A stretch of 62,491 nucleotides of DNA, counting the filler. It is 4 parts of 4 records of this genome, joined end to end, with 100 filler letters (N's around TTAATTAATTAA, not from the genome) between each part and the next. Parts side by side here need not be neighbours in the genome. Positions count along the whole stretch, not along the records: positions 21,659 to 48,611 come from SRR31156797_12392; 3 more parts are not named here. The stretch is one strand, 5' to 3'. The position numbers and the translations under genes were made by a program. The notes under the pieces are model-generated. The model was not told the origin of the DNA. It searched no databases and was given only the letters and a program-made list of their open reading frames with translations. Every line of letters begins with the position of its first letter. Position 1 is the first letter of the stretch. Below, piece by piece: positions 21,520 through 43,888 of this stretch.

Positions 21520-21530
21520 GATCTTTCTAG

Positions 21531-21558
21531 TGGCGGAGCCGACGAGACTCGAACTCGC
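21531..21558 (-). tRNA. tRNA 3' end (T-arm, acceptor, CCA), Asp-like; truncated by contig end
   Basis: Minus strand reads GCGAGTTCGAGTCTCGTCGGCTCCGCCA. The anticodon is not visible. Confidence 0.75.
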
Positions 21559-21658
21559 NNNNNNNNNNNNNNNNNNNNNNNNNNNNNNNNNNNNNNNNNN
21601 NNTTAATTAATTAANNNNNNNNNNNNNNNNNNNNNNNNNNNNNNNNNNNNNNNNNNNN
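21559..21658. other. Artificial contig linker
   Basis: N run with a central TTAATTAATTAA (stops in all frames), 100 nt. Confidence 0.97.
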
Positions 21659-22212
21659 TCCAGGAGATTGCGGAGCCGCTTTTCTTCTTTTGCATCACTG
21701 CCCAGGTCACCGAGAAAATCCTGAAGCCGTGGCAGCAATTCATCAATATACAAGCTGGCACCACCGGAACCGATACCCGAGTCTTCTTCGTGGGCGATAA
21801 AATGCTGCCTTAAAATGGCCACCAGAAGAGATTGCTCCAACGTGAATCGTTGTCTTCTGACAAGGGGGTGGGTCCATTGATCTTCATGGTCAAATAATTG
21901 GTCCGCCACTTTTAGTAAAACAATGCCCCTGATCTCATCCAATTTCAAACAAAGTTCAATCGGCTCCAATATTCCATTTATCTCTTTTTGATGGCGCTGG
22001 ACTGTTTTATAGATTGCGGGCTTGCGGCTCGCTTCTATGACACCGTATCTTAGAATCTCCTGAACAGCTGATTTAACAGCAGCTGGTGTATAAGATTCCG
22101 ATGTTTCCTGTCCCGGGTGCGGTTCATTGGGTTCTTCAGTGGGAATATCCGCCTGAACTGAAGCCGCAGGTGCCTCTTTGGCTGTTATCCGGTCAAATAT
22201 ACCAGTCATCAC
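21659..22212 (-). CDS. jetB: Wadjet JetB (DUF4194), 3' truncated
   Basis: Overlaps the jetA stop; LVRRQRFTLEQSLLVAILRQ is typical of DUF4194. Confidence 0.78.
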
Positions 22213-23714
22213 AGGTTCTCCGTATCAATTGATTTTAATTTATCTCCGGTTAATTCAATTTTAGGGACATTGAACCGGAACATCTGACCATCATTGGTTT
22301 TGTAATCTATAGATTCGCGTCCCTCAAGGTTAGGAAGGCCGGCTTCTCTTGCCATACTGATCCAAACAGCCAGGGTTTCAAGATCATGATCCGATAACAA
22401 TTCATCGGCCAAGTCTCCAATACTGAGTTTTTTGCCGGAAGCGTTCAGCAGGTTTATGGTATCCTGAATTAATTCATCGCGATCCAACTCATCAAATGCC
22501 TCCCAGAACTCGTCTTCGATTTCATCCAGATGAACCTGTTGTTTATCCAGACGCAGGTCTTCAGGATCATGCATGTTTATTGATTTAAACCGAAAGCGCT
22601 CCACAAGGGGGAGATTGGCCACGGCCACGGCTACAGGAGGAAGAGGGGAGGGCGATCTTCTGAATGCCGTCTTTTCCCAATCAAGATTTTCATTGGAGGC
22701 AATGTCAAAAATTTCATTGAGAAGTTCTCCCACACGGTGATTATCAGAGGCGATGCTGGTCTTTAGATAATTTTTTACATCCTTTTCACTGATTGCTCTG
22801 GCCCGGATGATATTTAAAGATTCCCCCACCAACCTGGTTACCAGCAATCGTAAATCGGCCCGTTGCTTAGGTGCGAGTGCTTTACCTGCAGCAGGGTTAT
22901 TAAGAATTGTTTTAAGCCGCTGTTTCATAAGATCCAGTTCTTCAGACTGGTTCAATTGCTCATAAAATCCGTGGAAGACTTTCCCTTCCGGCGTTTCCAG
23001 CAGGCTTTCATGGCCGTCCAGCAATTTATCTACAATTTCCCCCCGATTATTCCTTGCCTTGGAGATAGACTGCCGCAGTGTTTTATCAGCAATTCTATAG
23101 GAATCTTCCACCCGGCGGAAATCAGATCTAAGGCTCATTGCAAGGGAATATATTTCCTGAATCCCTTCAACCGCTTGGGAGCCTTCCAGTACTTCAAACT
23201 GGCCTGCCTCCACCTTTTTAAGTTCCTGTTGCAGGGAATGGATTCGGTTTTTTATGTGGGTTGCCCGACTCTGCCGGTCAGGATTTAGTCTGGCTTCAAG
23301 GTTTTCTATCTCTCTTTGGACTGTTGCCAGCCTTGAGGCCGTGGAAGTCATCATTCGATCATCAAGGCTGTCCATAAACAATAGTGCTTTTTCAAGGGCA
23401 TCGGTGGCTAAAAGTCGACCTTTGCGTTGGATCAGCAAGTCTCTGCTGATCCACTCCCGAAGTTCCTTGTCTGCAAATGCTGGGAGGTCATCGGTTTTAA
23501 TATCGAACTGGTCGTAATTGATATTAAGTTCGAGGATTTGGGCCAGCAACTGAACGGCATCCTCATAAATGATTCCGTCCTGCTGGGTTTCGAATAATTG
23601 TTTTAGACAGCTTAAGACCAATGGGGCTCGGCGTGCCGCCAGCAAGCGCCATGCAGGATTTCGACGGCGGGCCAAGATATAAGATTGGCAAAGCTCTTTG
23701 CTTTTTGAGTCCAT
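22209..23714 (-). CDS. jetA: Wadjet JetA (DUF3375)
   Basis: RRNPAWRLLAARRAPLVL, TSTASRL, DFRRVE and TPEGKVFHGF are typical of DUF3375. Confidence 0.82.
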   Translation of the reverse strand: MDSKSKELCQSYILARRRNPAWRLLAARRAPLVLSCLKQLFETQQDGIIYEDAVQLLAQILELNINYDQFDIKTDDLPAFADKELREWISRDLLIQRKGRLLATDALEKALLFMDSLDDRMMTSTASRLATVQREIENLEARLNPDRQSRATHIKNRIHSLQQELKKVEAGQFEVLEGSQAVEGIQEIYSLAMSLRSDFRRVEDSYRIADKTLRQSISKARNNRGEIVDKLLDGHESLLETPEGKVFHGFYEQLNQSEELDLMKQRLKTILNNPAAGKALAPKQRADLRLLVTRLVGESLNIIRARAISEKDVKNYLKTSIASDNHRVGELLNEIFDIASNENLDWEKTAFRRSPSPLPPVAVAVANLPLVERFRFKSINMHDPEDLRLDKQQVHLDEIEDEFWEAFDELDRDELIQDTINLLNASGKKLSIGDLADELLSDHDLETLAVWISMAREAGLPNLEGRESIDYKTNDGQMFRFNVPKIELTGDKLKSIDTENL

Positions 23715-23900: not shown

Positions 23901-24299
23901 TTACTCCACTTTTTTTAAACACAAAAAAGGTTCCCTGTCTTCAGGTTCGGACCTATCCTCCGTTTCTTTATGACTCCACCCGTAGCACTCGATATCATCG
24001 GATGAATCAGCTAAATCTAAACGGATCTCACCCCAGAATTCTTTGTCGCATTGAGCAGATTTAAAGTTCATAATTATGGGCTTTTCCGATGCATTTTTCA
24101 TTTCTATGAGTGAATCGAAATAGATTCTGTTTAAGTTATTAAACATGCCGCCGTTGGCCCCATTCTCTGCATCTTGAAGAATTTTTTCTCTGAATTTTTC
24201 AACCGCCTCATCTGGCCCGGCTGCTGCGGCGACCATCGAAAAAGAACCATGTTCATTGTCTTTCTCGGTGTCGAAACTAAAGTGTGCAATATATTCCAT
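23901..24299 (-). CDS. Hypothetical protein (132 aa)
   Basis: AGGAGG SD before ATG 24299; acidic protein. Confidence 0.65.
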   Translation of the reverse strand: MEYIAHFSFDTEKDNEHGSFSMVAAAAGPDEAVEKFREKILQDAENGANGGMFNNLNRIYFDSLIEMKNASEKPIIMNFKSAQCDKEFWGEIRLDLADSSDDIECYGWSHKETEDRSEPEDREPFLCLKKVE

Positions 24300-24349
24300 T
24301 GGAGTCCTCCTGTTCATTATTTAAGGTTGTGGGGGCAATGTACGACCCG

Positions 24350-24622
24350 CTATTGGCATTCCCGGTCCACATAAGCCATCCAGCCATTGCAGCCCTGGTA
24401 TTCTTTGGCCATCCCGTCTAAAAGAATTTGTCTTTGTTTTTCACTTAGTTGCTGCGGCAGCATCATGAGAAACAACGCTTGTCTGTTATGGTCCGAATCC
24501 GACATGATCAGGTCAAAGATGTCAGCATATCCTTCTTGTCTGGCTGACCGGTTATCTCTTGATCTTGTTATGCATGCTAAGCCATATGCTTTCCCTTTGA
24601 GATTTGAATACAGGTTACTCAT
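24350..24622 (-). CDS. Hypothetical protein (90 aa)
   Basis: AGGAGG SD before ATG 24622. Confidence 0.6.
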   Translation of the reverse strand: MSNLYSNLKGKAYGLACITRSRDNRSARQEGYADIFDLIMSDSDHNRQALFLMMLPQQLSEKQRQILLDGMAKEYQGCNGWMAYVDRECQ

Positions 24623-24772
24623 TTTCCTCCTGAGTGAATGTGAGTTGTTTTTATACGAGTTCGATTGTAACTGAGAGTTGATGTTTTTTTGTAGAGACCG
24701 CCTCCGGGCTTTCGGAGAATGGGGAGAAAGGCATGATTTCCTCCCCTATTCTATGCAAGACACCGGTCCAGG

Positions 24773-24979
24773 TTATGAGGTGTGGCAAGCATAAGAACAA
24801 TAATAACAGCCATTGGCTCTGGCGTAGTGTAATCTGGCCTGCTGGACAGCAGGTTGACAGCAGACATGTTCGCCTACATAGATCCTGTTTTCAGGGGCAG
24901 GCATGTGTACGCAGCCCTGTTTGTGTACTTCATGGTCTCCATTGGGTTGTTGGTTTTTGTTTACATAGTAAGACGCCAT
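24773..24979 (-). CDS. Small His/Cys-rich putative metal-binding protein (68 aa)
   Basis: YYVNKN..NGDHEVH..GC...NGCYYC...CHT; AAGGAAGG SD; sigma54 promoter upstream; hairpin downstream (about 24716-24752). Confidence 0.75.
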   Translation of the reverse strand: MASYYVNKNQQPNGDHEVHKQGCVHMPAPENRIYVGEHVCCQPAVQQARLHYARANGCYYCSYACHTS

Positions 24980-25033
24980 TGTGTCGTTCCTTCCTTTTAG
25001 GTTTTGGGTTTGTTGAAACTCAGCAACCCATAG

Positions 25034-25050
25034 AGCATTAAGGGTGCCAA
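25034..25050 (-). promoter_or_regulatory. sigma54 -24/-12 promoter for the 68-aa gene
   Basis: Minus strand TTGGCACCCTTAATGCT gives exact GG-N10-GC spacing; an IHF-like site lies at 25091-25103. Confidence 0.75.
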
Positions 25051-25217
25051 ACCGTTATTGTAGAATAATATTTTTTTTGTGACCTTGGGGTAAGTTATTG
25101 AAATAATAGGAGTTTTATATTTTAACTTTTTTATGCCTTGAACAGAAGGGGGGCAATGAGTTAAGAGGGGGGAGTAAAATATTTTGTGTGCACATAAATT
25201 AATTTATATGGTCGGAT

Positions 25218-26723
25218 ATGAAGAATATTTTGACATGCTGGATCGGGTCTGCGGATCTTAAGGCCTGTAACAATGATAAAGACGCCGGGGCAGGGCCCAT
25301 TGGCCAGGCCGTTGCATCACGGAAATATGATGAACTCTGCTTGATCAGCGATTGGGAAGCAGGAAAGACGGAGGCCTATAAAAAATGGATTGAGGGAGCG
25401 GGAAATCTCCCGGTTCGGGTTTATCCTACAAAACTGTCCGGTCCTACGGCATTTTCTGAAATCTATGAATCCGCGGTAAAGGTGGTAACCGATGTCCTGA
25501 ATAGGCATGGTAGGGAGACGAACCTCACCTTTCATATAAGCCCCGGCACTTCCCAGATGGCTGCAGTATGGATAATTCTCTCTAAAACGCTTTTCACTAA
25601 TGCAGAACTGATTGAATCCTCTATTGAGCAAGGGGTCAAAACGGTTTTATTCCCTTTTGAAATATCTGCTGAATTCATCCCTGATTTGTTGAGACCGTCA
25701 GACAAACGTTTGGAGCTAATGAGTCGGGGGCTGCCACCGGAATCGCCTGAATTTTCACAAATTATTCATAAAAGCCGTATTATGCAGCGTGTGATAGCCA
25801 AGGCCCAGCATGTGGCAATACGCTCGGTTCCCGTTTTAATGGAAGGTGAATCCGGTACGGGTAAAGAATTATTTGCCCGGGCGATTCATCGTGCAAGCCC
25901 AAGAAAAGATAAACCCTTTATCACTGTAAATTGTGGTGCAATTCCGGCAGATCTTCTTGAATCTCAACTTTTTGGCCATGTTAAAGGGGCCTTTACCGGG
26001 GCGGATAAAACTCAAAAAGGGTATTTTGAGGAAGCCGACGGTGGCACATTGTTTCTTGATGAAATCGGAGAGCTCCCTTTATTAAGCCAGGTAAAATTGT
26101 TGCGGACACTCCAGGAAAGTGAAGTGGTTCGCGTCGGAACCGCCAAACCGATTAAAATTGATGTCAGGATTATCGCTGCAACCAACAGGAGCCTGATCGA
26201 AGAAATACAGGAGGGACGATTCAGGGCCGATCTTTTCTATCGGCTGGCAGTGGCAATTTTGAAGATTCCTCCTCTCAGGGAAAGAACAGGGGATTTAAGT
26301 TTTCTTGTTGATCATTTTATGGCCCAGGTCAATACAGAGAGTAAAAATGAACCCGGCTACAAAGATAAAAAAATTTCTCCTGATGCAAAAAATCTTATGC
26401 TCCAGCATTCGTGGCCGGGCAATGTCCGTGAATTGTTAAACACGATCCAGCGGGCTGCGATCTGGTCCTTTGATTCAACCATAAACCGCGAGGACATTGA
26501 GGATGCACTGATTCCTCTGGGCTCTTCAAATCCTTCGGATATTCTGAACAGGCCCGTAGGAGGGGATTTTAGAATTGAAGAAGTGTTGGACATTGTTACA
26601 AAACATTATATTGAAAAGGCACTAAAAGAAGCTAATGGGAAGAAAGGGAAAGCAGCTGAATTGATAGGGCTTTCTAATTATCAGACCCTTGGGAACTGGA
26701 TGAAAAAATACAATATCAATTAA
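25218..26723 (+). CDS. sigma54-dependent enhancer-binding activator with N-terminal CARF/RtcR-like domain
   Basis: GESGTGKE, intact GAFTGA, LFLDEIGE, FRADLFYRL, WPGNVREL, C-terminal HTH. The N-terminal LTFHISPGTSQM resembles the CARF ligand loop. Confidence 0.88.
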   Translation: MKNILTCWIGSADLKACNNDKDAGAGPIGQAVASRKYDELCLISDWEAGKTEAYKKWIEGAGNLPVRVYPTKLSGPTAFSEIYESAVKVVTDVLNRHGRETNLTFHISPGTSQMAAVWIILSKTLFTNAELIESSIEQGVKTVLFPFEISAEFIPDLLRPSDKRLELMSRGLPPESPEFSQIIHKSRIMQRVIAKAQHVAIRSVPVLMEGESGTGKELFARAIHRASPRKDKPFITVNCGAIPADLLESQLFGHVKGAFTGADKTQKGYFEEADGGTLFLDEIGELPLLSQVKLLRTLQESEVVRVGTAKPIKIDVRIIAATNRSLIEEIQEGRFRADLFYRLAVAILKIPPLRERTGDLSFLVDHFMAQVNTESKNEPGYKDKKISPDAKNLMLQHSWPGNVRELLNTIQRAAIWSFDSTINREDIEDALIPLGSSNPSDILNRPVGGDFRIEEVLDIVTKHYIEKALKEANGKKGKAAELIGLSNYQTLGNWMKKYNIN

Positions 26724-26725
26724 TG

Positions 26726-26742
26726 TTGGCACTAGTATTGCT
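26726..26742 (+). promoter_or_regulatory. sigma54 -24/-12 promoter upstream of hsdR
   Basis: TTGGCACTAGTATTGCT is a near-perfect YTGGCAC-N5-TTGCW, starting 2 nt after the activator stop. Confidence 0.85.
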
Positions 26743-26771
26743 CTTAAACTCTTGCAATGGATAATCTGATT

Positions 26772-29700
26772 ATGAAATCGATAAATTTTGAAATTCTTCG
26801 CGATAAATGGCCTGAGTTGGCAAGTCTTGGTGGTTTTGCCGAAAACTACTCCCACACGGATCCCTCAAGTGCTCTTGTTAAGCTGCGAACCTTTGTCGAG
26901 TCATTTGTTGATCAAATTTATCGGTTTTACGGATTACCAAAACCGTATTATTCATCGTTGAATGACCTGTTGAATAATCATGCATTCAAGGCGGCTGTGC
27001 CTTCCGTCATCGTAAACACGCTGCATATCATAAGAAAATCAGGAAATAAAGCTGCCCATGGTGCTGATATTACTCAATATGAAGCGCTGAAGTTAGTTAA
27101 AGATGCTTATAATCTTTCAAGGTGGTTTTATGTTTTTACCGGTGGTTCCCAAGAGGACTGTAAGGACTTTCAGGAACCTGGTAAGCCCGAAAAGGTATCA
27201 TTAAAAAACAAGAAACGGGATCTCGAAGAGCTTGCTGTAAAAGAAGCCCAACTTCAGGCTGCCCTTGAAGAGTTAAAAGCCTCAACAGCCAAAATTGAAG
27301 CTGCTGAGAAAAAAGCCCAAGAACTTGAGAATCTCATGGCGAAAGGGCAGAAAACCGCTGATGCCCTTGAATTTGATGAAGCGATGACCCGGCAGCGGCT
27401 CATTGATTACCAGCTGGTAGATGCGGGGTGGGATGTCGGCCCGGACGGAGACGACACTGATGAGGTCACCCAGGAAGAAGAGGTCAAGGGGCAGCCGACA
27501 AAAACGGGCGTCGGATATGCAGATTATGTCCTCTGGGATAATAATGGCAAGCCCCTTGCTGTAATTGAAGCCAAGAAGACCGCTGTAAGCGCAGAGATGG
27601 GGCGGAAGCAGGCTCAGCTATATGCCGACGGCCTGGAAGCGGCTTACGATCAGCGGCCCGTCATTTTTTATACCAACGGATTTGAAATATTTATCTGGGA
27701 TGACGCCCAGAATTACCCGCCGCGGAAACTTTACGGCTTCTATTCAAAGGACAGTCTGCAGTATCTGATTTTCCAGCGCAATTACAAAAAGAATCTGGAT
27801 ACCCTTGATTCCTCTGCTGACATTGCAGGCCGGCTGTATCAGCTTGAAGCCATCAAACGGGTTTGTGAAAGATTTTCTGAAAAGCACAGAAGAGCCTTGA
27901 TTGTCCAGGCCACAGGGACCGGTAAAACAAGGGTCGCCATAGCGTTGACTGATCTATTGATTCGCGCCGGGTGGGTGAAGCGGGTGCTTTTCCTTTGTGA
28001 CCGAAAAGAACTGAGACGCCAGGCCAAAAATGCATTTAATGATTTTATTTCAGAGCCCATGACCATCGTCTCCGCCCGGACAGCCAAGGACAGGAATAAA
28101 CGGATTTATCTGGGCACCTATCCCGCCGTCAGTAAGATTTTTCAGACCTTTGACCCGGGATTTTTCGACCTTATCATTGCCGATGAATCCCACCGAAGCA
28201 TTTATAACCGGTACAGGGACATATTCACCTACTTTGATGCTCTGCAGGTTGGGTTGACTGCGACGCCCGTTGATTACATCAGCCGCAACACATTCAAACT
28301 GTTCGGATGCAGTGAACAGAACCCCACGGCCTATTATTCCCTGGGCAAAGGGGTGGAAGAGGGCTATCTGTCCCCCTATGAAGTGTACACACATACCACA
28401 AAATTTCTCAGGGCCGGCATAAAGTATAAAGATTTAACCAAGGAACAGCGGGAGCAGCTGGAAGAGGACGGAGAGGATCCAAAGTCTTTTAATTTTGATG
28501 CCGTCCAGATCGATAAACAGGTCTTTAATAAAGAAACCAACCGGATGATACTGAGAAATCTCATGGAAAACGGGATCAAGGAAGATACCGGGCAGTTTCC
28601 CGGTAAAACCATTATTTTTGCCCGAAGCCATGACCATGCAGTCCTTCTCGCTGAGCTCTTCGACGAGGTCTATCCCCAATACGGTGGGAAATTTTGCCAG
28701 GTCATCGATAATTATGATCCCAGGGCAGAGCAGCTCATTGATGACTTTAAGGAGGGGACCTGTCAAAAAGATGATTTAACCATTGCCATATCCGTGGATA
28801 TGCTTGATACGGGAATCGATATCCCTGAAATCGTGAACCTTGTATTTGCAAAACCGGTAAAGTCCAAAGTTAAGTTTTGGCAGATGATCGGCCGGGGGAC
28901 CCGGTTGTCTCCCGACCTTTTCGGAGACGGAAAGGATAAAACCGTTTTTCGGATTTTTGACCATTGGGGCAATTTTGAGTATTTTGAAGAAAAATTTAAG
29001 GAGTCAGAACCAGGAGCCTCAAAATCCTTAATGCAACAGGTTTTCGAAATACGGGTCAACCTGGCAGACAAAGCGCTGCAGGAATCTGAGATTGCGTTTT
29101 TTGATACCATAATTCATCTAATCCGACAGAATATTTTATCTCTGCCTGAAAAAACGATTGCTGTCAGGGAGAGGTGGCGTGAGAAAAAAAAGCTGGAGAA
29201 TATCGATACACTTAAAGGGTTTTCCCCTGCCACATTGGCATCTTTAAAAAAGGACCTGGCCCCCCTGATGCAGTGGGTGGATATCCGGGGCCATGCCGAT
29301 GCCTGTCGATTTGACCTGCTGATTGCACAATTGCAGAAGGAAAAGCTTAAAAAAAGTGCCTTATTCGATAATCTGAAAGGAGAATTGTTAAATCGCATCG
29401 GCCAGCTTCGGATGAACCTTAACCAGGTCAAAGAGAAGGCCGAAGTTATCAAAAAGTTAAAAGATAAAAAGTTTTGGGATACCGTCACCCTTAAGGACTT
29501 GGAAGACGTCCGTATGGACCTCAGGGGTATCATGCAGTATCGCGATAAGGGGACTGTTCAACCCAAACCTGAACCCTATTTGATTGATATTGATGACAGT
29601 GATGAGATCAAGGAGGAGAAAGCACCCTATCTACCTGAAGTTGAAATGGTGGCCTATAAAAAACGGGTTGAGGAAGCACTCCTTGATATCTTCGATAAAA

Positions 29701-30155
29701 ATATCACCTTGCAGAAAATAAGATCCGGTCAATCCGTTAGTAAAGAGGACCTCGATTCCCTTGTGTCCCTGGTGCTTACCCAGAATCCGGATGTGAATTT
29801 TGATCTCCTTGCGGAGTTTTATCCGGAAAACGCAAGGTCTTTGGACTTTATAATTCGGTCAATTATTGGTATGGACGCCGGGGCTGTTAAACAGCGCTTT
29901 GAGGAGTTTGCCATGAAAAACTCCGGACTGAGCGCCCGGCAGGTGAGTTTTTTAAGGATGCTCCAGAATCATATTGCAAAATATGGATCCATAGAAATCG
30001 ATAATCTCTATGAAGCGCCGTTTACCACCTTGGCCAGTGACGGCATTGACGGTATTTTTGAAGATGACAGCCAGGTGGATGAAATCATAAGCATTCTGGA
30101 AACGTTTCAGCCCCAGGGGCAGGATGTTACGGGAGATGAAACCAGGCCCAATTAA
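26772..30155 (+). CDS. hsdR: Type I restriction enzyme R subunit (EcoAI/EcoEI-like, N-terminal DUF4145-like domain)
   Basis: ADYVL...VIEAKK nuclease, ATGTGKT, DESHRS, GLTATP, QMIGRGTR. ATG 26772 is preferred over 26757 given the promoter position. Confidence 0.93.
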   Translation: MKSINFEILRDKWPELASLGGFAENYSHTDPSSALVKLRTFVESFVDQIYRFYGLPKPYYSSLNDLLNNHAFKAAVPSVIVNTLHIIRKSGNKAAHGADITQYEALKLVKDAYNLSRWFYVFTGGSQEDCKDFQEPGKPEKVSLKNKKRDLEELAVKEAQLQAALEELKASTAKIEAAEKKAQELENLMAKGQKTADALEFDEAMTRQRLIDYQLVDAGWDVGPDGDDTDEVTQEEEVKGQPTKTGVGYADYVLWDNNGKPLAVIEAKKTAVSAEMGRKQAQLYADGLEAAYDQRPVIFYTNGFEIFIWDDAQNYPPRKLYGFYSKDSLQYLIFQRNYKKNLDTLDSSADIAGRLYQLEAIKRVCERFSEKHRRALIVQATGTGKTRVAIALTDLLIRAGWVKRVLFLCDRKELRRQAKNAFNDFISEPMTIVSARTAKDRNKRIYLGTYPAVSKIFQTFDPGFFDLIIADESHRSIYNRYRDIFTYFDALQVGLTATPVDYISRNTFKLFGCSEQNPTAYYSLGKGVEEGYLSPYEVYTHTTKFLRAGIKYKDLTKEQREQLEEDGEDPKSFNFDAVQIDKQVFNKETNRMILRNLMENGIKEDTGQFPGKTIIFARSHDHAVLLAELFDEVYPQYGGKFCQVIDNYDPRAEQLIDDFKEGTCQKDDLTIAISVDMLDTGIDIPEIVNLVFAKPVKSKVKFWQMIGRGTRLSPDLFGDGKDKTVFRIFDHWGNFEYFEEKFKESEPGASKSLMQQVFEIRVNLADKALQESEIAFFDTIIHLIRQNILSLPEKTIAVRERWREKKKLENIDTLKGFSPATLASLKKDLAPLMQWVDIRGHADACRFDLLIAQLQKEKLKKSALFDNLKGELLNRIGQLRMNLNQVKEKAEVIKKLKDKKFWDTVTLKDLEDVRMDLRGIMQYRDKGTVQPKPEPYLIDIDDSDEIKEEKAPYLPEVEMVAYKKRVEEALLDIFDKNITLQKIRSGQSVSKEDLDSLVSLVLTQNPDVNFDLLAEFYPENARSLDFIIRSIIGMDAGAVKQRFEEFAMKNSGLSARQVSFLRMLQNHIAKYGSIEIDNLYEAPFTTLASDGIDGIFEDDSQVDEIISILETFQPQGQDVTGDETRPN

Positions 30156-30258
30156 CATAAACAAAGAATGGTAGCAAACAGTGTCTAAGTGGAAAATTGA
30201 AAATTCTATCGAATATATCCTTGGGCACTATGTAAATGAATTAAAGAAATAAAGGTAA

Positions 30259-31779
30259 ATGAAAAATATGATAACCGGTGACATTAAGTGTAAAATAAAT
30301 AAACTGTGGGAAGAATTTTGGACTGGTGGGATTACCAACCCGCTCACAGTAATTGAGCAGATTTCTTTTCTGATGTTTTCACGTCTTCTTGATGAGACGG
30401 AAAGGAAAAACGAGAAGAGGGCCAAGCGGACAAAAAAAGAGTTTAACCCTGTGTTCAAAGCGGATGAGCAGGAACTTCGCTGGTCAAATTATATCCATCT
30501 TGGCGCAAAGGAAATGCTGCCCCTTGTCAGGGATCGCGTATTCCCTCATTTTAAAAGTGCAGCTATGGATAACACGGCATTTGGGGAGTATATGAAGGAT
30601 GCCCAGTTAATGATCCAGAAGCCTTCGCTATTGGTATCTGCCGTCACCCTTATTGATGAACTCCCCCTGGACAGGGGCGATACAAAAGGGGATCTGTATG
30701 AATACCTGCTCGGTAAATTGACCACCGCCGGAATAAACGGACAGTTTCGGACCCCCCGTCATATCATCCGAATGATGGTTGAAATCCTTGATCCCAAACC
30801 GGATGAAACCGTTGTCGATCCGGCTTGCGGCACAGCAGGTTTTCTTATATCCGTGATGGAGTATCTCCTTGAAAAATATAGTTCGGAAGAAGCGGTCATC
30901 ATACATGATACCGGTGAAAAAACTTTTACTGGTGATAAGCTTGAAGCACATCAGTGGAAGCATATCACCCACGGCATGTTCCATGGTTTTGATTTTGATA
31001 TCACCATGCTTCGGATTTCTGTCATGAACCTTTTGCTTCATGGTATTGATTCGCCGACCATCCATTACCAGGATACCTTGAGCAATAACTTCCCTGAAAA
31101 ATTTCCTGAATATGCTGAAGATGGGTTTGACGTTATCCTGGCCAATCCTCCGTTTAAGGGGAGTTTGGATTATGAGGATGTTCATCCCTCACTTCTTTCA
31201 AAGGTAAAAACCAAGAAGACAGAACTTTTGTTTGTTACCTTGATTTTGAAAATGTTGAAACTGGGTGGGCGATCAGCCACCATTGTACCTGACGGTGTTC
31301 TTTTTGGATCGTCCAAAGCTCATGTGGCTCTTAGAAACGCTCTGGTTGAAGAAAATCAGCTGGAAGGCATCATTTCTTTGCCATCAGGTGTTTTTAAGCC
31401 TTATGCAGGAGTTTCTACTGCTATTTTAGTTTTTACCAAAGGTGGTAAAACTGATGATGTTTTTTACTATGATGTTACGGCCGATGGATTTTCTTTGGAT
31501 GACAAAAGAGTGAAGGTTGAAGAAAATGATATCGATGATGTGATTAATCGATGGAAAAATAAAAATTCTGAAAAGGATGTAGATAGAACAAAGCAATTCT
31601 TTTTTGTAACAAAAGATGAAATTAAGGCCAATAAGTATGACCTCTCCATCAATCGGTATAAAGAAATCGTCTATGAAGAAACCGAATATGACCCACCAAA
31701 GGAGATCCTTATCAGGATGAAGGAACTTGAAAAAGAAGTACTTGTAGACATAGATGATCTGGAGAGGATGTTGGGATGA
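30259..31779 (+). CDS. hsdM: Type I RM N6-adenine methyltransferase
   Basis: [35 protein letters not shown]. Confidence 0.95.
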
Positions 31780-32948
31780 TTTACGAATCAATCGCCATAT
31801 CAGATTTTTGTAAAACGGGAAGCGGAGGAACGCCTTCTCGAAAAAATGTAGATTATTATAAGGGTACGATCCCATGGATAAAGTCGGGTGAATTGAAAGG
31901 TGACACTCTTTTTGATTCGGAAGAAAAAATTACAGAAGAAGCAATACAAAATTCCAGCGCCAAAATTATACCTAAAAATGCAATTTTAATGGCGATGTAT
32001 GGCGCTACAATTGGCCAAATGGCTATTTTAGGAATTGATGCTACCACTAACCAAGCCATATGTAATATCATCCCTGACAATAGGAAAGCCGATAATAGAT
32101 ATGTTTTTTATGCTCTTCAGAATGTAGTTCCTGAGTTACTGAATAGAAAAGTTGGTGGGGGGCAACCTAATATTAGTCAGGCAATCATAAAAGAGACAAA
32201 AATTCCACTGCCTCCAATAGAAACGCAGAAGCGTATTGTGCTAATTCTTGATAAAGCAAAGGAGATTCGACGCAAGCGAGCAAGAGCAATCGATATGATC
32301 GAGGAGTTTTTAAAGGCTGTTTTTTTAGATATGTTTGGAGATCCGGCTACTAATCCGAGAGGTTGGAAGGTTGGCACAATAAGGGATATCGTTTCTGAAG
32401 CAAAGTATGGAACTTCAAAAAAAGCAAGTGAGACTAAAAAGAAATTTTCAATACTCCGTATGAACAATATAACCTATCAAGGGCATTTGGATTTAAGATC
32501 GCTGAAATATATCGAATTGACTGAAAAAGAAGAAGACAAGTATCTTGCACGAAAAGGAGATCTTTTATTTAATCGAACCAATAGCAAAGAGTTAGTAGGG
32601 AAAACAGCAGTTTACAGTCGGTCTGAAGCTATGGCACTGGCCGGGTATCTTATTCGTGTCAGGCCGAATGAAAAAGGGAATTCATATTACCTTTCTGCAT
32701 ATCTGAATTCTAAACATGGGAAAGCTACACTATTAAATATGTGCAAAAGCATTGTTGGGATGGCGAACATTAATGCTCAGGAGCTTCAGGATATTAAAAT
32801 TTTGCTCCCCCCTGTTAAACTTCAGGAAAAATTTGCAAGGATTGTTCAAGATGTTGAATATAAAAAAAAGAGACTATCTTTAATGCTTGAGGAAAGTGAC
32901 TTTTTATTCCGGTCATTGACACAGAAGGCTTTCCGAGGAGAATTGTAA
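31776..32948 (+). CDS. hsdS: Type I RM specificity subunit
   Basis: Two TRDs, each followed by PLPPIETQ / LLPPVKLQ helical spacers; ends AFRGEL. Confidence 0.93.
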
Positions 32949-34607
32949 ATGAAGCTTACCGGTATGACTATAGAAAATTTTAAGGGAATTGGTCGCGCCG
33001 TTCATTTGGATCTAAAGCCCATCACATTATTGTTCGGCCCTAATAGCGCCGGGAAGAGTACTCTTGTACACGCCTTAAATTATGCATGCGAAATATTCGA
33101 GAGAGGGAATCTTGATCCAGGGCGAACTCTAAATGGGGGGAGTTCGTTGGATTTGGGTGGTTTTCGTAATCTCATTTATAACCATGATATACGTCAAGCA
33201 ATATCTTTTAAGTTCCACCTGGATTTAGACGGGGGGGATTTGCCGACATATGACATAAAAGATGAGGAAACAAATGAATTTATTGTGGGGCCAGACGAGT
33301 GGGAAGACTCTGAGTTTAAAAATATCCTTGAAAAGATTGAAACCGTTTGGGTTGCAGTAAAGATAAAATGGTCCGACTTTATAAAACGGCCTATACTGAG
33401 TTGTTATTCCGTCGGTATAAACGAAGAAGAATTCGCTATTATCAAAACTTCTGGAGATGGAAAGCAGGCTTTTTCAAAACTAAATGTTTTTCATTCCATT
33501 TTTTCAAATAAAGACGCTGCTGACGTTAAGGACGAACTTTTAAGTGGTTTAAATATAAATCAAGATCTACTTGATCAAGATGACGAAATATTTGGTCCTA
33601 TGTTTCAGTTGTTTATTAGGAACTTTGAAATTGAGGGCGCCAAGAGTGTAGGTAAATCCAAGGATATTGGTGTTGTTTGTCAATCTGAGTCTGCATTACC
33701 GGTTTGGGGGCAGGGGTTGAGTTTTAATCGTTCTCAGTTTGCAAGTGATGCTCATATTCTTGATCAAATGGCCTTCGCGGCAATAACCAGTGCATTAATT
33801 GTAGGGCCAGGGGAGATTCTACGAGATGTGCTGAGAAAATTTAAATATATAGGGCCGATCCGTGAAATTCCAAAACGGAATTTTCGACCTTCAATAACTA
33901 AGGATGAATCTCGTTGGGCAAATGGGCTAGCTGCATGGGATTTTTTGTATAAATCCGACCAGACATTTATTAATGAACTTAATAAATGGATAGCTAACGA
34001 TGATGGAATCAATATCGGGTATCGGGCTGAATTGAAGGAAACATATGAACTGGATGCAAATAGTCCTCTTATGAGGAGGCTTAAAAACGGTGAAATTATA
34101 GAAGAAGATTTAACTGAAAATGATTTCGATCGTTTATCTGTAAAAACTCAGTTTATATTGAAAGAGGAGGTTAGCCGTATTGAAGTTCATCCCCAGGACA
34201 TAGGCGTTGGGATCTCGCAGGTCCTTCCAGTAATCGTGGCCTCCCTTGCTTCTCGTGAGGGAATTATTGCAATGGAGCAACCGGAATTACATATCCATCC
34301 GGCGCTTCAAGTTGCTTTGGGGGATTTGTTCATTACACGGGCCAATGAAAATGATATCTGTTTCTTAATCGAAACCCATAGTGAGCATTTGATTTTGAGG
34401 TTATTGCGCCGCATACGCGAAACAACCGAGAATGAATTGCCTCCCGGTGCAGATGGGTTTACACCAGATCAATTATCTGTTTTGTACCTCGATAAAAAAG
34501 ATTCCGGCCTTGAAGTTTTAAAACTTGAAGTTGATGAGACTGGTGATTTTGAAACGGAGTGGCCCAAAGGTTTTTTTGAAGAAAGAGATGAGGAGCTGTT
34601 TTTTTAA
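32949..34607 (+). CDS. ABC/AAA_21-type ATPase with DUF3696-like C-terminus
   Basis: GPNSAGKS, DIGVGISQVLP, MEQPELHIHP, IETHSEH, WPKGFF. Confidence 0.85.
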   Translation: MKLTGMTIENFKGIGRAVHLDLKPITLLFGPNSAGKSTLVHALNYACEIFERGNLDPGRTLNGGSSLDLGGFRNLIYNHDIRQAISFKFHLDLDGGDLPTYDIKDEETNEFIVGPDEWEDSEFKNILEKIETVWVAVKIKWSDFIKRPILSCYSVGINEEEFAIIKTSGDGKQAFSKLNVFHSIFSNKDAADVKDELLSGLNINQDLLDQDDEIFGPMFQLFIRNFEIEGAKSVGKSKDIGVVCQSESALPVWGQGLSFNRSQFASDAHILDQMAFAAITSALIVGPGEILRDVLRKFKYIGPIREIPKRNFRPSITKDESRWANGLAAWDFLYKSDQTFINELNKWIANDDGINIGYRAELKETYELDANSPLMRRLKNGEIIEEDLTENDFDRLSVKTQFILKEEVSRIEVHPQDIGVGISQVLPVIVASLASREGIIAMEQPELHIHPALQVALGDLFITRANENDICFLIETHSEHLILRLLRRIRETTENELPPGADGFTPDQLSVLYLDKKDSGLEVLKLEVDETGDFETEWPKGFFEERDEELFF

Positions 34608-35488
34608 TGATCTATGAATATGCTGTTTCACCTGAGCTGTTTTCAAATGCATCTTTTATCCAAATACTCCAAAATACTTTCGGTCAGGAGGAAGGTCGAC
34701 TTTTTTCAGACATTCCTAAAAAGAAATGGCAGCAACAGGTATTTGAGGTTATCAGGAAATCTGAGAATAAACCTGTCATGCGAAAATCAATGTCCAATGC
34801 TGCAAAAAAGCTGTTTAAGAAGGCGATTTACAAACGTAACACCCATCCTGTCTATGATGACAGCATTGAATGGCTGCAATTTGTTATTGATGTTCATAAT
34901 GAAAGGCCTTTCAGAGCTATCATTGTAGATCAATATGACGGTGAGGAAGAGTATGTTCTGGTGAATGATCTGGGTTTGGCCGATCAGCCTTTATGGTCGG
35001 TGCCGAATGATGTCTCCGTGGATAGAAAGCATAAAGTAATGGTGCAGCAGATAAAGTGCATGCTGGATTGCGCCTCTGAAATTATTTTGGTTGACAGGAA
35101 TTTTAAACCGGACACACAGCGTTTTCAAAATGTGTTAGCAGAAATCATGTCGCTGCTTTCAGCAAGAGCTCACGGACCAAGAATTGGGAAGATTGTTTAT
35201 CATACAAGTGACATGGTAACTGTTGGCAAGTTAGAGGCTGATTGTTTAAGATGGATAAAAACAAGCATTCCACCTGGTATGAAGTTGGAGGTTGTCGTCT
35301 GGCCGAAAGAGAATCTGCATGATCGATTTGTTTTAACAAATATTGGTGGCGTTGTTTTTGGGCAAGGGCTTGATGAACAACTCGGATATGGCCCTGATAA
35401 AATTTTAATCACCCGTCTTTCTGATGACACCTATAAAGAATGGTGGTCTGCGTGTCGGAAAAAGACTGCTGATTTCACGATAAGTTGA
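34607..35488 (+). CDS. Hypothetical protein with PLD-like/MIT_C HDR motif, coupled to the ATPase
   Basis: TAATG overlap with the ATPase stop; IILVDRNF and LHDRFVLT...GQGLD. Confidence 0.55.
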   Translation: MIYEYAVSPELFSNASFIQILQNTFGQEEGRLFSDIPKKKWQQQVFEVIRKSENKPVMRKSMSNAAKKLFKKAIYKRNTHPVYDDSIEWLQFVIDVHNERPFRAIIVDQYDGEEEYVLVNDLGLADQPLWSVPNDVSVDRKHKVMVQQIKCMLDCASEIILVDRNFKPDTQRFQNVLAEIMSLLSARAHGPRIGKIVYHTSDMVTVGKLEADCLRWIKTSIPPGMKLEVVVWPKENLHDRFVLTNIGGVVFGQGLDEQLGYGPDKILITRLSDDTYKEWWSACRKKTADFTIS

Positions 35489-35659
35489 CCGTAGAAATTG
35501 GCATTGAATAAGAAAATTTATGTTTATATAAGAATCCTTATCTTTGTAACTGATACTCTTTAAAAAAATGAAAATTTTATAATTGGTGTTGTTCTTTATC
35601 TCTCTTATATTCAGCATGTTGTGGTTTTATATTCTCGTATCTTCTAAAATCTAAAAAAA

Positions 35660-35676
35660 TTGGCACACTCCTGGCA
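35660..35676 (+). promoter_or_regulatory. sigma54 -24/-12 promoter upstream of DUF2188 gene
   Basis: TTGGCACACTCCTGGCA gives GG-N10-GC; a weak IHF-like site lies at 35609-35621. Confidence 0.65.
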
Positions 35677-35720
35677 ATACTTCCTTTCAGTAAATAACTT
35701 ACGAAAGGAGGTGATTGGAA

Positions 35721-35942
35721 ATGGGCAAGAATCAGCACGTAGTTCCCCACGGAGATCAATGGGCCGTGACGGGTGAAGGAAACTCCAAGGCGACTTCTTT
35801 GCACGGCACCCAGCAGGAGGCCATTGATGCCGGAAGGCAGATTGCACAGAATCAGCAGAGCGAGCTTCTCATCCATGGCCAGAATGGTCAGATAAGAGAA
35901 AAAAACTCTTATGGCAACGACCCATTCCCGCCTAAAGGGTAG
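35721..35942 (+). CDS. DUF2188 family small protein
   Basis: QHVVPHGDQWAV..EG...TQQEAI...ELLIHG.NGQIRE.NSYGNDP; AAGGAGGTG SD. Confidence 0.88.
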   Translation: MGKNQHVVPHGDQWAVTGEGNSKATSLHGTQQEAIDAGRQIAQNQQSELLIHGQNGQIREKNSYGNDPFPPKG

Positions 35943-35948
35943 GAACGG

Positions 35949-35991
35949 AATACACCAAAGGGAGGCCTGAATTATCCCTTTGGTGTATTTT
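35949..35991 (+). terminator. Intrinsic terminator after DUF2188
   Basis: Perfect 15-bp stem AATACACCAAAGGGA / TCCCTTTGGTGTATT ending in a short T run. Confidence 0.75.
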
Positions 35992-36270
35992 CAACCGGTT
36001 GGCACAACAAGGCTGACTTGGAGGTTTTATAGCCTTTAATGCAGCGGTCAGATCACAGATGTAAATGTTCTGAGAAATGTTGACATAGGTGGTTTAACTT
36101 CATAGTATCCGCGGTGGTAAAAAGAAGGTTCGATGTCTGCATCCTCCCGCATTCTACAGCGGGTTCATGCCGAAGCCGTGGCATACGATCTAATGGTAAT
36201 TCTAATTTCTTTGAGGGTGTCTTTTTCAATCACATCAAATGAAATTTCATTCAAGTATAAAGGATTCAAA

Positions 36271-36939
36271 ATGAAAAAATTTGCTGCTAAAACAGCCCGG
36301 CCTATTCCTGTAATAATTCTTGCGGATACCAGCGGAAGCATGAGCGTTGATGGAAAGATTGACGCCATGAATCAGGCGCTCAGGGATCTCATTGACACCT
36401 TTTCAGGTGAAAGCCGGCTGAACGCAGAAATTCAATTGTCTGTCATTACATTCGGCGGAGATGGTGCAAAAGAGCACCTGTCCCTGACCAGTGCCCACTC
36501 TATTTCCGGGTTTTCAGATTTGCAGGCCCATGGAGCGACGCCCATGGGCAGTGCCTTTAGAATTGCCAAAGAGCTGATCGAAGATAAGGAAAAAATTCCT
36601 TCAAGGGCCTACCGCCCGGTGATTGTACTGGTGTCTGACGGTTATCCCAACGATGACTGGCAAAGTGCTTTTTCTGCACTCTGCGGCTCCGAGCGGGCAC
36701 AGAAAGCGACCCGGATGGCCATGGCCATCGGCAGTGATGCAGACGAGAACATGCTCAAAGATTTTATCAATGATCTTGAAACCCCTGTTTTCAGGGCCAA
36801 CGGAGCAAGGGATATCATTCGGTTTTTCCGGGCGGTGAGCATGAGTGTCACCAGCCGTTCGCGCAGCTCGGCTCCCAATGAGCCGATCCAGAGCGCATAT
36901 GAGGAAATTCCCGATGATGAATTGGATCTGGATTTCTAA
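36271..36939 (+). CDS. terY: TerY-like vWA domain protein (TerY-P triad)
   Basis: MIDAS motif DTSGSMS, GATPMG, LVSDGYPND. ATG 36271. Confidence 0.88.
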   Translation: MKKFAAKTARPIPVIILADTSGSMSVDGKIDAMNQALRDLIDTFSGESRLNAEIQLSVITFGGDGAKEHLSLTSAHSISGFSDLQAHGATPMGSAFRIAKELIEDKEKIPSRAYRPVIVLVSDGYPNDDWQSAFSALCGSERAQKATRMAMAIGSDADENMLKDFINDLETPVFRANGARDIIRFFRAVSMSVTSRSRSSAPNEPIQSAYEEIPDDELDLDF

Positions 36940-37632
36940 ATGGGAATACGGATTTTTTCTGCATCTGTAATGGGGGCAGGGCATATCGCTAACAATACCC
37001 CCAACCAGGATGCGGTGTTTACCCGGCAATGGGAACATGGCTGGCTGGCAGTGGTCAGTGACGGCATGGGGTCCCGGAAAAGATCGGATATCGGTTCTCA
37101 ATGCGTGTGCAGGGCTGCGTTTCATGTCTTGAAAAACGCTTCTTTCGATACGCCGGACCGGGATCTTGTCCTTGTGATTTATAAACGCTGGCTGGATGAG
37201 TTGGGCTCTGTCAAACCCAATGATGCCGTGGCCACCTGTTTGATTGCCTGGGGTCAGAATTCCGGGCAAACACGATTATTCCAGCTCGGTGACGGTGCCC
37301 TTATGTACCAGGCGCAGGAACATGTGCAACTGTCCTGCAGACAAGGTGCTGCTTTTTCCAATGAAACAACTGGGCTTGGGATCTCACGAAGATACAGTGA
37401 CTGGATCACCAAGGCTGTTTCCCTGGGGAAGAAAGGCCAGGGGCTGGCGCTGATGACGGATGGTATCAGTGAAGATCTGGTTCTGGCCGATCAATTTGTT
37501 CCTTATCTGATTCAGACAATGAAGAGAATGAGCCGCAGGCGAGCAAAAAAATGGCTCCGGACACAATTGGAAAATTGGCCGACGCCGGGACACACAGACG
37601 ATAAAACCTTAGCATTAATCTTTTGGAAATAA
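36940..37632 (+). CDS. PP2C-family phosphatase (TerY-P triad)
   Basis: GAGH...PNQDA, VVSDGMGS, LGDG, LMTDG, DDKT. Confidence 0.9.
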   Translation: MGIRIFSASVMGAGHIANNTPNQDAVFTRQWEHGWLAVVSDGMGSRKRSDIGSQCVCRAAFHVLKNASFDTPDRDLVLVIYKRWLDELGSVKPNDAVATCLIAWGQNSGQTRLFQLGDGALMYQAQEHVQLSCRQGAAFSNETTGLGISRRYSDWITKAVSLGKKGQGLALMTDGISEDLVLADQFVPYLIQTMKRMSRRRAKKWLRTQLENWPTPGHTDDKTLALIFWK

Positions 37633-37634
37633 AT

Positions 37635-39089
37635 ATGATACTTGCAACTGAAAACGCTGAAAATAAAGAGCCCCAAAAGAAAAAAACGGGAAACCGGAAG
37701 GTCCAGGATAGAAAAGGCACTGTCTATACTCTGACCGGCAAGGTAGGAGAAGGGGGACAGGGAATGGTTTGCTCCACAGATCTTCCCGGGGTGCTGATAA
37801 AAATTCAGACAGAGAAAAATCCATCAAAAAGGAAAGAATGGGAACGGCATATCAAATGGCTGATGCGCCAGGACTTTACCGGCTTGAAGATCGCCCGGCC
37901 TTTGGAGGTCGTTGCCCGGCCCCCAAGTGTAAACGGTTATATCATGGAACTGATGGACGGGCTTGAATCTTTGGAAAAATCCCTGGAGAGATCTTTCATT
38001 CAATTGTCAGAGAATGAAGATGAACCCCTCCAAGGCTATCAAAGTACCGGCGGCTTAAAACGAAGGCTTATGCTTTTGGCTGAGCTGGCCCGGACACTGG
38101 CAGGACTCCATGCTAAGGGGCTTGCCTATGGTGATCTGTCACCGGCAAATATTTTTGTTTCCCAGTCTGTAGAACATCACCAGCTCTGGCTCATCGACTG
38201 CGATAATATCTGCATCAGTGAGCGGGCAGGTCATGGAGATGTACATACCCTCGGATATGCTGCTCCGGAGATCGCCCGGGGGGAATCCGGAGTAAATATG
38301 TCTACGGACTGCTGGAGTTTTGCTGTGATTGCAATGAAGTTTCTTTCCCATACTCATCCTTTTGAATCCGGTATTGCTGTGGAGGATGGGGACCCTGATG
38401 TTGAGATGAAACGGGCTTTGGAAGGGGAATTGCCCTGGATATATGATGAAGATGATGAGAGTAATGAATGGGCCGGCTCCGGGCTGCCCCTTGATATTTT
38501 GACCACAAAACAGATCCGGGGATTGTTTAATCAGTGTTTTGGGCCTGGAAAAGATGATTTGTCAGCCCGTCCGTCAATGGCTGCATGGGCCGATGCCCTG
38601 GATGCCGCATGTGCCTTGATTCATGGATGCTGTAATCCTGACTGTGGGATATCCTTTATCTTTAATTCAGATCAAACATGCCCGTTTTGCGAGACCGTAC
38701 AACCCAAGCAGAATAGTGTGTTGCTGAAGCATTATCTTATTAATGATACTGGCAGCCCTGATGAGCCCCGCTGGATTAAGACCAATGAGGTTCAAGTAAT
38801 CAATGCCGGGCAACGCGTAGATTTTCATATCGGTGCTGTGGGCACAGCGCTTTACCGTGAATCCCCGAAGATTTGCACCCTTGAGCTGGGTCAAGACGGT
38901 CTGATTATAAAACCCACAAAGCATGGGCTTCTCTCTCTTCAAAAGACTGGGGATAAAAAACTTCTTCAAATTAAAAGACAGCATACTTTGAAATCGGATA
39001 CCCGTTCGGGTAATGCCTTTGGCCTCCATTTGCGCATGGAGGATCATTCCGGTTTTCTTTCTCACCCTGTCTGGACATTCATCTGGTAG
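37635..39089 (+). CDS. Ser/Thr kinase with Zn ribbon (TerY-P triad)
   Basis: GEGGQG, YGDLSPANIF, LIDCDN, GYAAPE, DCWSFAV; C.NPDC...CPFC. Confidence 0.9.
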   Translation: MILATENAENKEPQKKKTGNRKVQDRKGTVYTLTGKVGEGGQGMVCSTDLPGVLIKIQTEKNPSKRKEWERHIKWLMRQDFTGLKIARPLEVVARPPSVNGYIMELMDGLESLEKSLERSFIQLSENEDEPLQGYQSTGGLKRRLMLLAELARTLAGLHAKGLAYGDLSPANIFVSQSVEHHQLWLIDCDNICISERAGHGDVHTLGYAAPEIARGESGVNMSTDCWSFAVIAMKFLSHTHPFESGIAVEDGDPDVEMKRALEGELPWIYDEDDESNEWAGSGLPLDILTTKQIRGLFNQCFGPGKDDLSARPSMAAWADALDAACALIHGCCNPDCGISFIFNSDQTCPFCETVQPKQNSVLLKHYLINDTGSPDEPRWIKTNEVQVINAGQRVDFHIGAVGTALYRESPKICTLELGQDGLIIKPTKHGLLSLQKTGDKKLLQIKRQHTLKSDTRSGNAFGLHLRMEDHSGFLSHPVWTFIW

Positions 39090-39097
39090 GGGGGCTT

Positions 39098-43886: not shown

Positions 43887-43888
43887 AA

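Follow-up and report, generated by a model that had tools for sequence, protein, structure and literature searches.

Can a type I restriction operon be placed under a ligand-sensing sigma-54 activator, and which of its neighbours would share that control? The question is raised by a 62.5 kb stretch of DNA (the window, meaning the whole stretch analysed), in which Pfam and PADLOC scans find a dense run of defence genes and, within it, a gene for a CARF-type activator followed directly by hsdR, hsdM and hsdS. The usual view of type I restriction systems is that their transcription is constitutive and their regulation post-translational. A sequence-only reading of the window had proposed that three -24/-12 sites form one regulon of the adjacent CARF-AAA+-HTH activator. 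Our scans with Pfam, NCBIfam and PADLOC models, together with a comparison of related loci, support this proposal through the conservation of the sites and their pairing with a recurrent motif, and suggest that the region is probably a sigma-54 regulatory cassette complete in itself, with a CARF-AAA+-HTH enhancer-binding protein at its centre.

A CARF-type activator beside conserved sigma-54 sites

The sigma-54 sites and the genes around them are:

25050-25034, minus strand: P(orf68), TTGGCACCCTTAATGCT, reading TTGGCAC-N5-ATGCT, 55 nt before the orf68 ATG, predicted start near 25023
26726-26742, plus strand: P(hsdR), TTGGCACTAGTATTGCT, an exact TGGCAC-N5-TTGCT, 3 nt past the activator TAA, predicted start near 26753
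35660-35676, plus strand: P(DUF2188), TTGGCACACTCCTGGCA, reading TTGGCAC-N5-TGGCA, 47 nt before the DUF2188 ATG, predicted start near 35687
24773-24979, minus strand: orf68, a 68-aa Cys-rich small protein, candidate target of the divergent promoter
25218-26723, plus strand: the activator, 501 aa, CARF-AAA+ (sigma-54 interaction)-HTH_8, RtcR_PspF2 type
26757-30155, plus strand: hsdR, type I restriction subunit (Pfam ResIII, HSDR_N and EcoEI_R_C; PADLOC REase_I 3.4e-301)
30259-31779, plus strand: hsdM, type I methyltransferase (N6_Mtase 1.2e-62 and HsdM_N; MTase_I 1.5e-183)
31776-32948, plus strand: hsdS, specificity subunit (Methylase_S 7.5e-44; Specificity_I 2.1e-118)
32949-34607, plus strand: AAA_15/DUF3696 ATPase of a defence-candidate family (PADLOC NsnB 2.4e-45, PDC-M55A, HEC-03B)
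34607-35488, plus strand: orf293, a 293-aa partner of the ATPase, without a Pfam, PADLOC or NCBIfam family
35724-35942, plus strand: DUF2188 small protein, PADLOC PDC-S16 (PF09954 2.4e-28; PDC-S16 2.2e-39)
35953-35991, plus strand: hairpin with a U-tract, a likely terminator closing the DUF2188 unit (fold -26.5 kcal/mol, z -3.9)

All three subunits of a type I restriction-modification system, HsdR, HsdM and HsdS, are thus present by both Pfam and PADLOC. The three GG-N10-GC sites, each beginning TTGGCAC, lie where the earlier reading had placed them, on the strands it gave. They are intergenic and correctly oriented, with 0 mismatches to TGGCAC-N5-TTGCW at 26727, 1 at 25049 (minus strand) and 1 at 35661. 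P(hsdR) stands 15 or 30 nt from its gene depending on which ATG is used, and the DUF2188 ATG is preceded by an AGGAGG ribosome-binding site.

The activator itself carries a Sigma54_activat domain (PF00158, 6.9e-71, residues 182-347), an AAA lid and an HTH_8 domain (1.1e-5), and the intact GAFTGA loop claimed for it can be read in the translation. PADLOC assigns it to RtcR_PspF2--CARF_AAA_HTH (2.5e-196, residues 3-500), with weak matches to CARF4 and CARF1. A structural model of residues 1-182, built from 27 aligned sequences with a pLDDT of 84.4, found PDB matches by Foldseek of which all those listed were CARF or CRISPR-associated proteins (Csm6, Card1, Can2, ring nucleases and Csa3; best E 3.4e-6, TM 0.5-0.6). 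The PADLOC match and these structural matches together bear out its description as a CARF-type activator, and the N-terminus is predicted to have a Rossmann-like CARF fold. The loop residues WIGxTD and HxSPGT are conserved within it and are candidate ligand-binding positions. The NCBIfam equivalog for RtcR, NF038308, is the best NCBIfam match and includes the CARF region, at 346.9 bits where the cut-off is 650. The open reading frames (ORFs) scanned, which elsewhere in the window were those of at least 120 aa, contain no RtcA or RtcB domain, and the activator's neighbours are orf68 and hsdR; since the match falls below the cut-off and no rtcA or rtcB stands beside the gene, the activator is not RtcR proper. 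Its family is a large one with strong conservation, the best 120 database matches being 58-91% identical and nearly all full length.

Related loci were collected by an alignment-based scan with one genome per species, which gave 542 relatives among 600 candidate stretches, the best 80 of which were kept (L001-L080); a scan with the single activator protein as query had returned no relatives. A metagenome scan added L081 (91% identical), L082 (the same as L081 over the compared region), L083 and L084. The 80 genome loci span Desulfobacterota, Myxococcota, Planctomycetota, Gemmatimonadota, Latescibacterota, Acidobacteriota, Gammaproteobacteria, Nitrospirota, Spirochaetia, Chloroflexota and others, and rpoN was found in all five genomes tested of relatives with the same cassette. 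Within 1 kb downstream of the activator, 43 of these 80 loci have the beginning of hsdR, 8 that of hsdM and 1 that of the ATPase; the remaining 28 have another gene there or a contig that is too short.

For P(hsdR), we took the best match to TGGCAC-N5-TTGCW between -25 and +45 nt of the activator stop in the 82 loci whose sequence extends far enough downstream. This match had no more than one mismatch in 62 of them and no more than two in 67, compared with 0.29% and 1.2% of random 70-nt windows from the same loci. The position is strictly kept: among the 67 loci, 62 have the T of TGGCAC 0-4 nt past the stop, several of them directly after TGA or TAA, and the promoter is found in 41 of the 43 loci with hsdR downstream. 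Conservation in orthologous islands was the test named beforehand, and it favoured the proposal for P(hsdR) (62/82) as well as for the divergent promoter described below (18/81).

The strictly kept position argues that P(hsdR) is the main driver of the operon, which on the cassette reading would be silent until induced. A type I system expressed at a constitutive basal level, by read-through from the activator's own promoter with the sigma-54 site only boosting it, would instead be tunable, and we regard this as possible while leaning against it. The interval between the activator stop and the first hsdR ATG is just 33 nt long and contains no terminator-like site, so that basal read-through into hsdR is possible; no promoter-like site was found in the hsdR-hsdM gap either (the three reported in 29900-30400 sit just inside the hsdM start), and the same read-through transcripts may therefore sustain methylation. 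Without continuous methylation a host would not tolerate the restriction enzyme of its own restriction-modification system, which speaks for such a supply, although a sigma-54 closed complex parked 3 nt past the stop could in turn hinder read-through. The hsdR gene has two in-frame ATGs 15 nt apart, and relatives keep the second (MKSxNFE) together with a short stretch before it; the true start is probably this second ATG, at 26772, so that the leader, counted from the predicted transcription start, would measure about 19 nt.

A tandem-dyad motif paired with the promoters

A search for shared repeats among the three promoter regions of the window alone gave nothing convincing, and the palindrome TGTGCACA was not enriched. 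By aligning the 200 nt before the activator starts, and then iterating a position weight matrix (PWM) built without the window, we obtained a 38-nt motif of two units, each approximately AYAARAnnTCTTGT with internal dyad symmetry, set 21 nt apart. In most loci the upstream copy starts 44-48 nt before the activator ATG, and a PWM score of at least 15 within 80 nt upstream of the activator start was found in 68 of 83 loci. Scanned on both strands, the window holds three copies, named here as candidate upstream activating sequences (UAS), where the next unrelated score is 12.6 and the 99.99th percentile 6.2:

25174-25211, unstranded: UAS1, PWM 32.5, the best in the window, ending 6 nt before the activator ATG, centre 140 nt upstream of P(orf68)
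26361-26402, unstranded: UAS2, within the activator ORF, PWM 26.5, centre 347 nt upstream of P(hsdR)
35504-35545, unstranded: UAS3, the second best locus, PWM 26.6 on the plus and 24.6 on the minus strand with the top at 35508, centre 138 nt upstream of P(DUF2188)

The pairing of motif and promoter extends well beyond the window. Of the 123 sigma-54-like sites in the 83 loci and the window taken together (1.49 Mb), 72 are preceded by the motif at a distance of 60-450 nt, compared with 4.3 expected. The window itself contains six sites with at most one mismatch, and the three described above are all paired with the motif, whereas the other three (20344, 27545 and 54123) are unpaired and lie inside genes. 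Only 5 matches in the 83 loci fall outside the two standard places of the motif, before the activator gene and within it. Three of these secondary motifs (L006, L045 and L055) are followed by a sigma-54 site with at most one mismatch 108-166 nt downstream, a fourth (L084) by one at 385 nt, and that in L016 by a two-mismatch site only. The slot in L006 is the same as in the window, with the motif after an orf293 homologue and the sigma-54 site 160 nt downstream of it. Taken with the HTH_8 domain of the activator, these promoter-paired tandem dyads are candidate upstream activating sequences.

We propose that the HTH domain of the activator would bind this tandem dyad at three places, before its own gene, within its coding sequence and 9 kb downstream, and that a signal at the CARF domain would then cause the AAA+ ring to open sigma-54 RNA polymerase complexes waiting at the three promoters. 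For this signal the earlier reading suggested RNA damage, with 2',3'-cyclic-phosphate RNA as the RtcR precedent, or a nucleotide; these are candidates only, the protein scoring below the RtcR cut-off. Transcription would accordingly depend on RpoN and on the activator, and its outputs would be the 68-aa protein (divergently), hsdR-hsdM-hsdS-ATPase-orf293 (from the promoter abutting the activator stop) and DUF2188. The suggestion that IHF-like sites lie upstream of two of the promoters could not be established: the 7 exact WATCAANNNNTTR matches in the window include none near the promoters, and the one-mismatch matches, one in each enhancer-to-promoter interval where shuffles give 0.25-0.52, are not clearly above chance.

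In 58 of 83 loci the intragenic copy keeps a constant position, with its centre 328-346 nt short of the end of the ORF, and overlaps codons for K-K-[IL]-S-x-x-A-[KR]-N-L. Because the protein is conserved at this position, constraint on the DNA beyond the protein was examined through codon use, by comparing motif positions with the rest of the same genes in 41 activator genes with at least 60% GC. Rare A/T-ending codons proved far commoner at the motif positions than elsewhere:

CTT (Leu): 25/35 and 29/33 at motif positions, 10.5% elsewhere
TCT (Ser): 27/37 at motif positions, 4.5% elsewhere
GCA (Ala): 31/38 at motif positions, 8.7% elsewhere
AGA (Arg): 21/37 at motif positions, 3.2% elsewhere
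AAT (Asn): 20/38 at motif positions, 16.3% elsewhere

In the three most GC-rich loci (L036, L041 and L066) these rare codons are lost, and the post-stop promoter is also absent. More broadly, an intragenic motif scoring at least 15 was present in 51 of the 67 loci with a post-stop promoter and in 6 of the 15 without one (Fisher p 0.011, among related loci). A translational pause was considered as the reason for the rare-codon cluster and rejected as its main reading, as the stretch fits the same PWM as the non-coding upstream motif.

UAS1 probably overlaps the activator's own promoter too, and the dyad could be taken further in this direction, as a binding site for some other factor or as a housekeeping-sigma promoter from which a near-leaderless mRNA would start, with the sigma-54 promoters served from solution or by another activator. 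The upstream copy does end about 8-10 nt before the ATG at a near-fixed distance (-44 to -48), which would fit a short-leader mRNA, and many loci have no obvious ribosome-binding site there. We nevertheless consider this unlikely, since the motif recurs where there is no activator start (inside the ORF in 58/83 loci, before P(DUF2188), and in L006, L045 and L055) and is paired with sigma-54 sites far beyond expectation (72 against 4.3). A dimeric HTH protein would fit its dyad symmetry and its period of 21 nt, and the C-terminal HTH residues of the activator are invariant in 17 aligned sequences, matching the conservation of the motif across phyla.

Small-protein targets, cargo and limits of the regulon

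The earlier reading had also added two small proteins to the regulon, and both are retained by our analysis, as each of their promoters has its cognate enhancer-like motif. Among 81 loci, 18 have a sigma-54 site with no more than one mismatch, and 37 one with no more than two, on the minus strand within 400 nt before the activator start; the plus strand of the same stretches gives 1 and 9 of 81. Distances from these divergent sites to the activator start cluster at about 100-125 or 150-185 nt. The genes behind them differ among loci:

Window and L081: the 68-aa Cys-rich protein
L039 and L074: DUF2188
L005: a 57-aa protein, then an orf68 homologue
Many GC-rich loci (L008, L010-L014, L017, L018, L021, L027, L032, L034, L043 and L047): a conserved protein of about 560 aa

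The orf68 product matches no family in Pfam, NCBIfam or PADLOC. A 68-aa homologue occupies the same position in L081, tblastn finds one at 67% identity in L005, and Atlas clusters of 68-69-aa proteins have 382, 103 and 60 members. The homology between the window and L081 begins at 24737, just past orf68, which places orf68 within the cassette and the genes beyond it outside. The divergent site in L081 reads TGGCATCCTTCATGCT, with GG and GC kept. DUF2188 is a sigma-54 target again in L039 (1 mismatch) and L074 (2 mismatches), in both cases behind the divergent site. The conservation of P(DUF2188) itself is supported indirectly, by these two loci and by the slot in L006.

Several observations weigh against the cassette reading. 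The loci are phylogenetically related, so their counts are not independent events; 15 of 82 loci have no post-stop site at two mismatches or fewer, and the divergent site is absent at the same threshold in 44 of 81. In 17 loci, mostly GC-rich, TTGA replaces the canonical TTGC at -12 (L008, L010, L012, L014, L017, L018, L021, L024, L026, L027, L032, L034, L043, L044, L047, L048 and L061). This variant, which stands directly after the TGA stop in 16 of the 17 and overlaps the ORF end in L061, departs from the canonical GC in a conserved way. At -12, P(DUF2188) has TGGCA in place of TTGCA. The distance between UAS2 and P(hsdR), about 350 nt, exceeds the usual 80-150 nt, and UAS1, being fixed 44-48 nt from the ATG, could be, or could also be, a promoter or operator of the activator. 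Both the motif and a sigma-54 site are missing at a DUF2188 gene that lies elsewhere in a Myxococcus genome (L092), and DUF2188 would therefore be a target only inside the cassette. Motif counts in the window as a whole are near chance, with 27 sites at up to two mismatches against 31.4 expected and 9 copies of TTGGCAC against 8.4.

At up to one mismatch the count is higher, 6 against 2.2 expected, a value reached in 3 of 100 shuffles. The sites described here exceed chance because they are conserved across loci and are alone among these six in being paired with the motif, and we judge all three to be real sigma-54 promoters. That at least one of them is an inactive chance match, P(DUF2188) being the weakest and P(orf68) the next, is very improbable: the near-chance counts, the non-consensus -12 of P(DUF2188) and the fact that L081 ends before the DUF2188 region would allow it, but all three are intergenic and oriented with the motif 138-347 nt upstream, where the other one-mismatch sites are intragenic and unpaired, the GG and GC of P(orf68) are kept in L081, and DUF2188 recurs behind a sigma-54 site in L039 and L074. 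A further TTGGCAC at 35999-36015, between the DUF2188 hairpin and the vWA gene, was not counted as a promoter, having GG-N9-GC spacing and no enhancer motif.

The cargo of the cassette is not limited to restriction genes. The ATPase and its orf293 partner co-occur in many loci; in L029, L071 and L083 the post-stop site is followed by the ATPase as the first long ORF, with no type I restriction-modification genes between, and in L045 and L055 the ATPase lies behind the secondary sigma-54 site further downstream, again with no type I genes between the ATPase and partner and the activator. The ATPase and its partner of about 290 aa thus look like an independent two-gene module under the same control.

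Downstream of DUF2188 the regulon appears to end. The vWA-PP2C-kinase (TerY-P) and helicase block that follows is separated from it by the DUF2188 hairpin, has a TTGACA-17-TAGTAT site at 36080-36108, before vWA, and shows no enhancer motif or properly spaced sigma-54 site upstream in the window; for these reasons we place the block outside the direct regulon in the window, and this CoCoNuT-like block seems to have a promoter of its own. Its helicase matches AAA_11/AAA_12 (best PADLOC MkoA, 5.9e-89), and its 493- and 629-aa proteins have no family. In the remainder of the window, where domain scans covered ORFs of at least 120 aa, the neighbouring features are:

17600-19798, plus strand: AAA_13 protein, PADLOC PDC-S06, full-length match 7e-247
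21607-22212, minus strand: JetB (DUF4194)
22209-23714, minus strand: JetA, PADLOC 2.4e-210
23901-24979, minus strand: three small ORFs
36133-48342, plus strand: vWA, PP2C, Ser/Thr kinase, SF1 helicase, 493-aa protein, AAA_5 ATPase and 629-aa protein

The C-terminal part of the AAA_13 protein at 17600-19798 (plus strand) is weakly PrrC-like (2e-11), and one may speculate that, if it is an anticodon nuclease, it could yield cleaved tRNA within the same island. On the minus strand at 20314-23714, JetA and JetB are followed only by a 371-aa ORF without a family, with no gene of JetC or JetD size, and the stretch may be a Wadjet remnant. Two proteins, at 55588-57018 and 57596-58969, carry Por_Secre_tail, a type IX secretion sorting domain, yet the activator has its closest relatives in records annotated as Desulfobacteraceae.

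Relation to known systems and meaning for defence

Like RtcR with rtcBA in Escherichia coli and Salmonella, the window combines a CARF-like sensor, a sigma-54 AAA+ module and an HTH with a sigma-54 promoter that would drive adjacent genes. It differs from RtcR not only in its score (346.9 against 650 bits) but in its cargo, a type I restriction-modification operon and small proteins with no rtcA or rtcB in the ORFs scanned, in a main promoter that lies in tandem after the activator rather than divergent to it, and in an enhancer-like copy inside the activator ORF. The AAA+ domain matches solved structures of PspF (E ~1e-59). In the psp system pspF is divergent to a sigma-54 promoter, with the enhancer sites between them overlapping the activator's own promoter region. 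PspF lacks a sensor domain and is regulated through the PspA protein, whereas the window activator has a fused CARF domain and a second promoter in tandem.

The concept of such control is known. RtcR-like CARF-NtrC-HTH proteins, the family to which the window activator belongs (PADLOC RtcR_PspF2), were described as 'often associated with R-M systems' (restriction-modification systems) and predicted to be sigma-54-dependent activators of downstream genes that regulate DNA restriction (Makarova et al. 2014, PMC4012209). Bell et al. 2024 (PMC11090510) extended RtcR-like control to CoCoNuT superoperons. The sequence-only reading named the proposal for CoCoNuT superoperons, and the idea itself is older, control of restriction-modification through sigma-54 having been predicted in 2014. 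The window follows the gene order given in PMC11090510 for RtcR-associated superoperons, from an RtcR homologue through type I restriction-modification genes and vWA-PP2C-kinase (TerY-P) to an SF1 helicase and an AAA ATPase; the likeness to CoCoNuT is at the level of domain content, and the CoCoNuT-like part of the window looks to be outside the direct regulon. The apparent promoter of the TerY-P/helicase block fits the remark in the same text that internal RtcR-independent promoters probably exist in superoperons.

The available passages of PMC4012209 give no promoters, enhancers or target lists, and these cis-elements and small targets come from the present analysis. The literature searched, in the parts available and including two sigma-54 regulon papers, with the 2014 supplements and the 2020 NAR (Nucleic Acids Research) CARF census outside its coverage, gave no promoter or enhancer sequences for the family, no intragenic enhancer and no DUF2188 or 68-aa protein targets; the cis-regulatory architecture was found in none of the papers searched.

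The regulon reading is well supported by comparative evidence, while the nature of the signal and the strictness of induction, as opposed to a mere boost, are matters that we infer from sequence. If the reading is correct, a restriction operon gated by sigma-54 and CARF would amount to transcriptionally inducible innate immunity, and would connect ligand sensing of the CRISPR-ancillary type with classical restriction, a link predicted in 2014 for which the literature searched held no concrete cis-elements. Such elements are now at hand in three promoters with predicted starts, a conserved three-copy motif of which one copy lies in coding sequence and is held by rare codons in GC-rich genomes, and about 80 orthologous loci, so that the hypothesis is directly testable, and the motif with its promoter provides a search rule for further regulon members in other genomes.

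A broader suggestion, on which we are evenly divided, is that the activator gene is a portable 'inducibility cassette', with a 5' divergent promoter and enhancer, a second enhancer in its codons and a sigma-54 promoter fused to its stop, such that any defence operon landing downstream would become ligand-inducible. This would explain the diversity of the cargo, which would be type I restriction-modification in 43 of 80 loci and otherwise hsdM-first systems, the ATPase pair or other genes, as well as its spread across many phyla, and additional enhancer and promoter pairs, like the one before DUF2188, would bring other small genes under the same signal.

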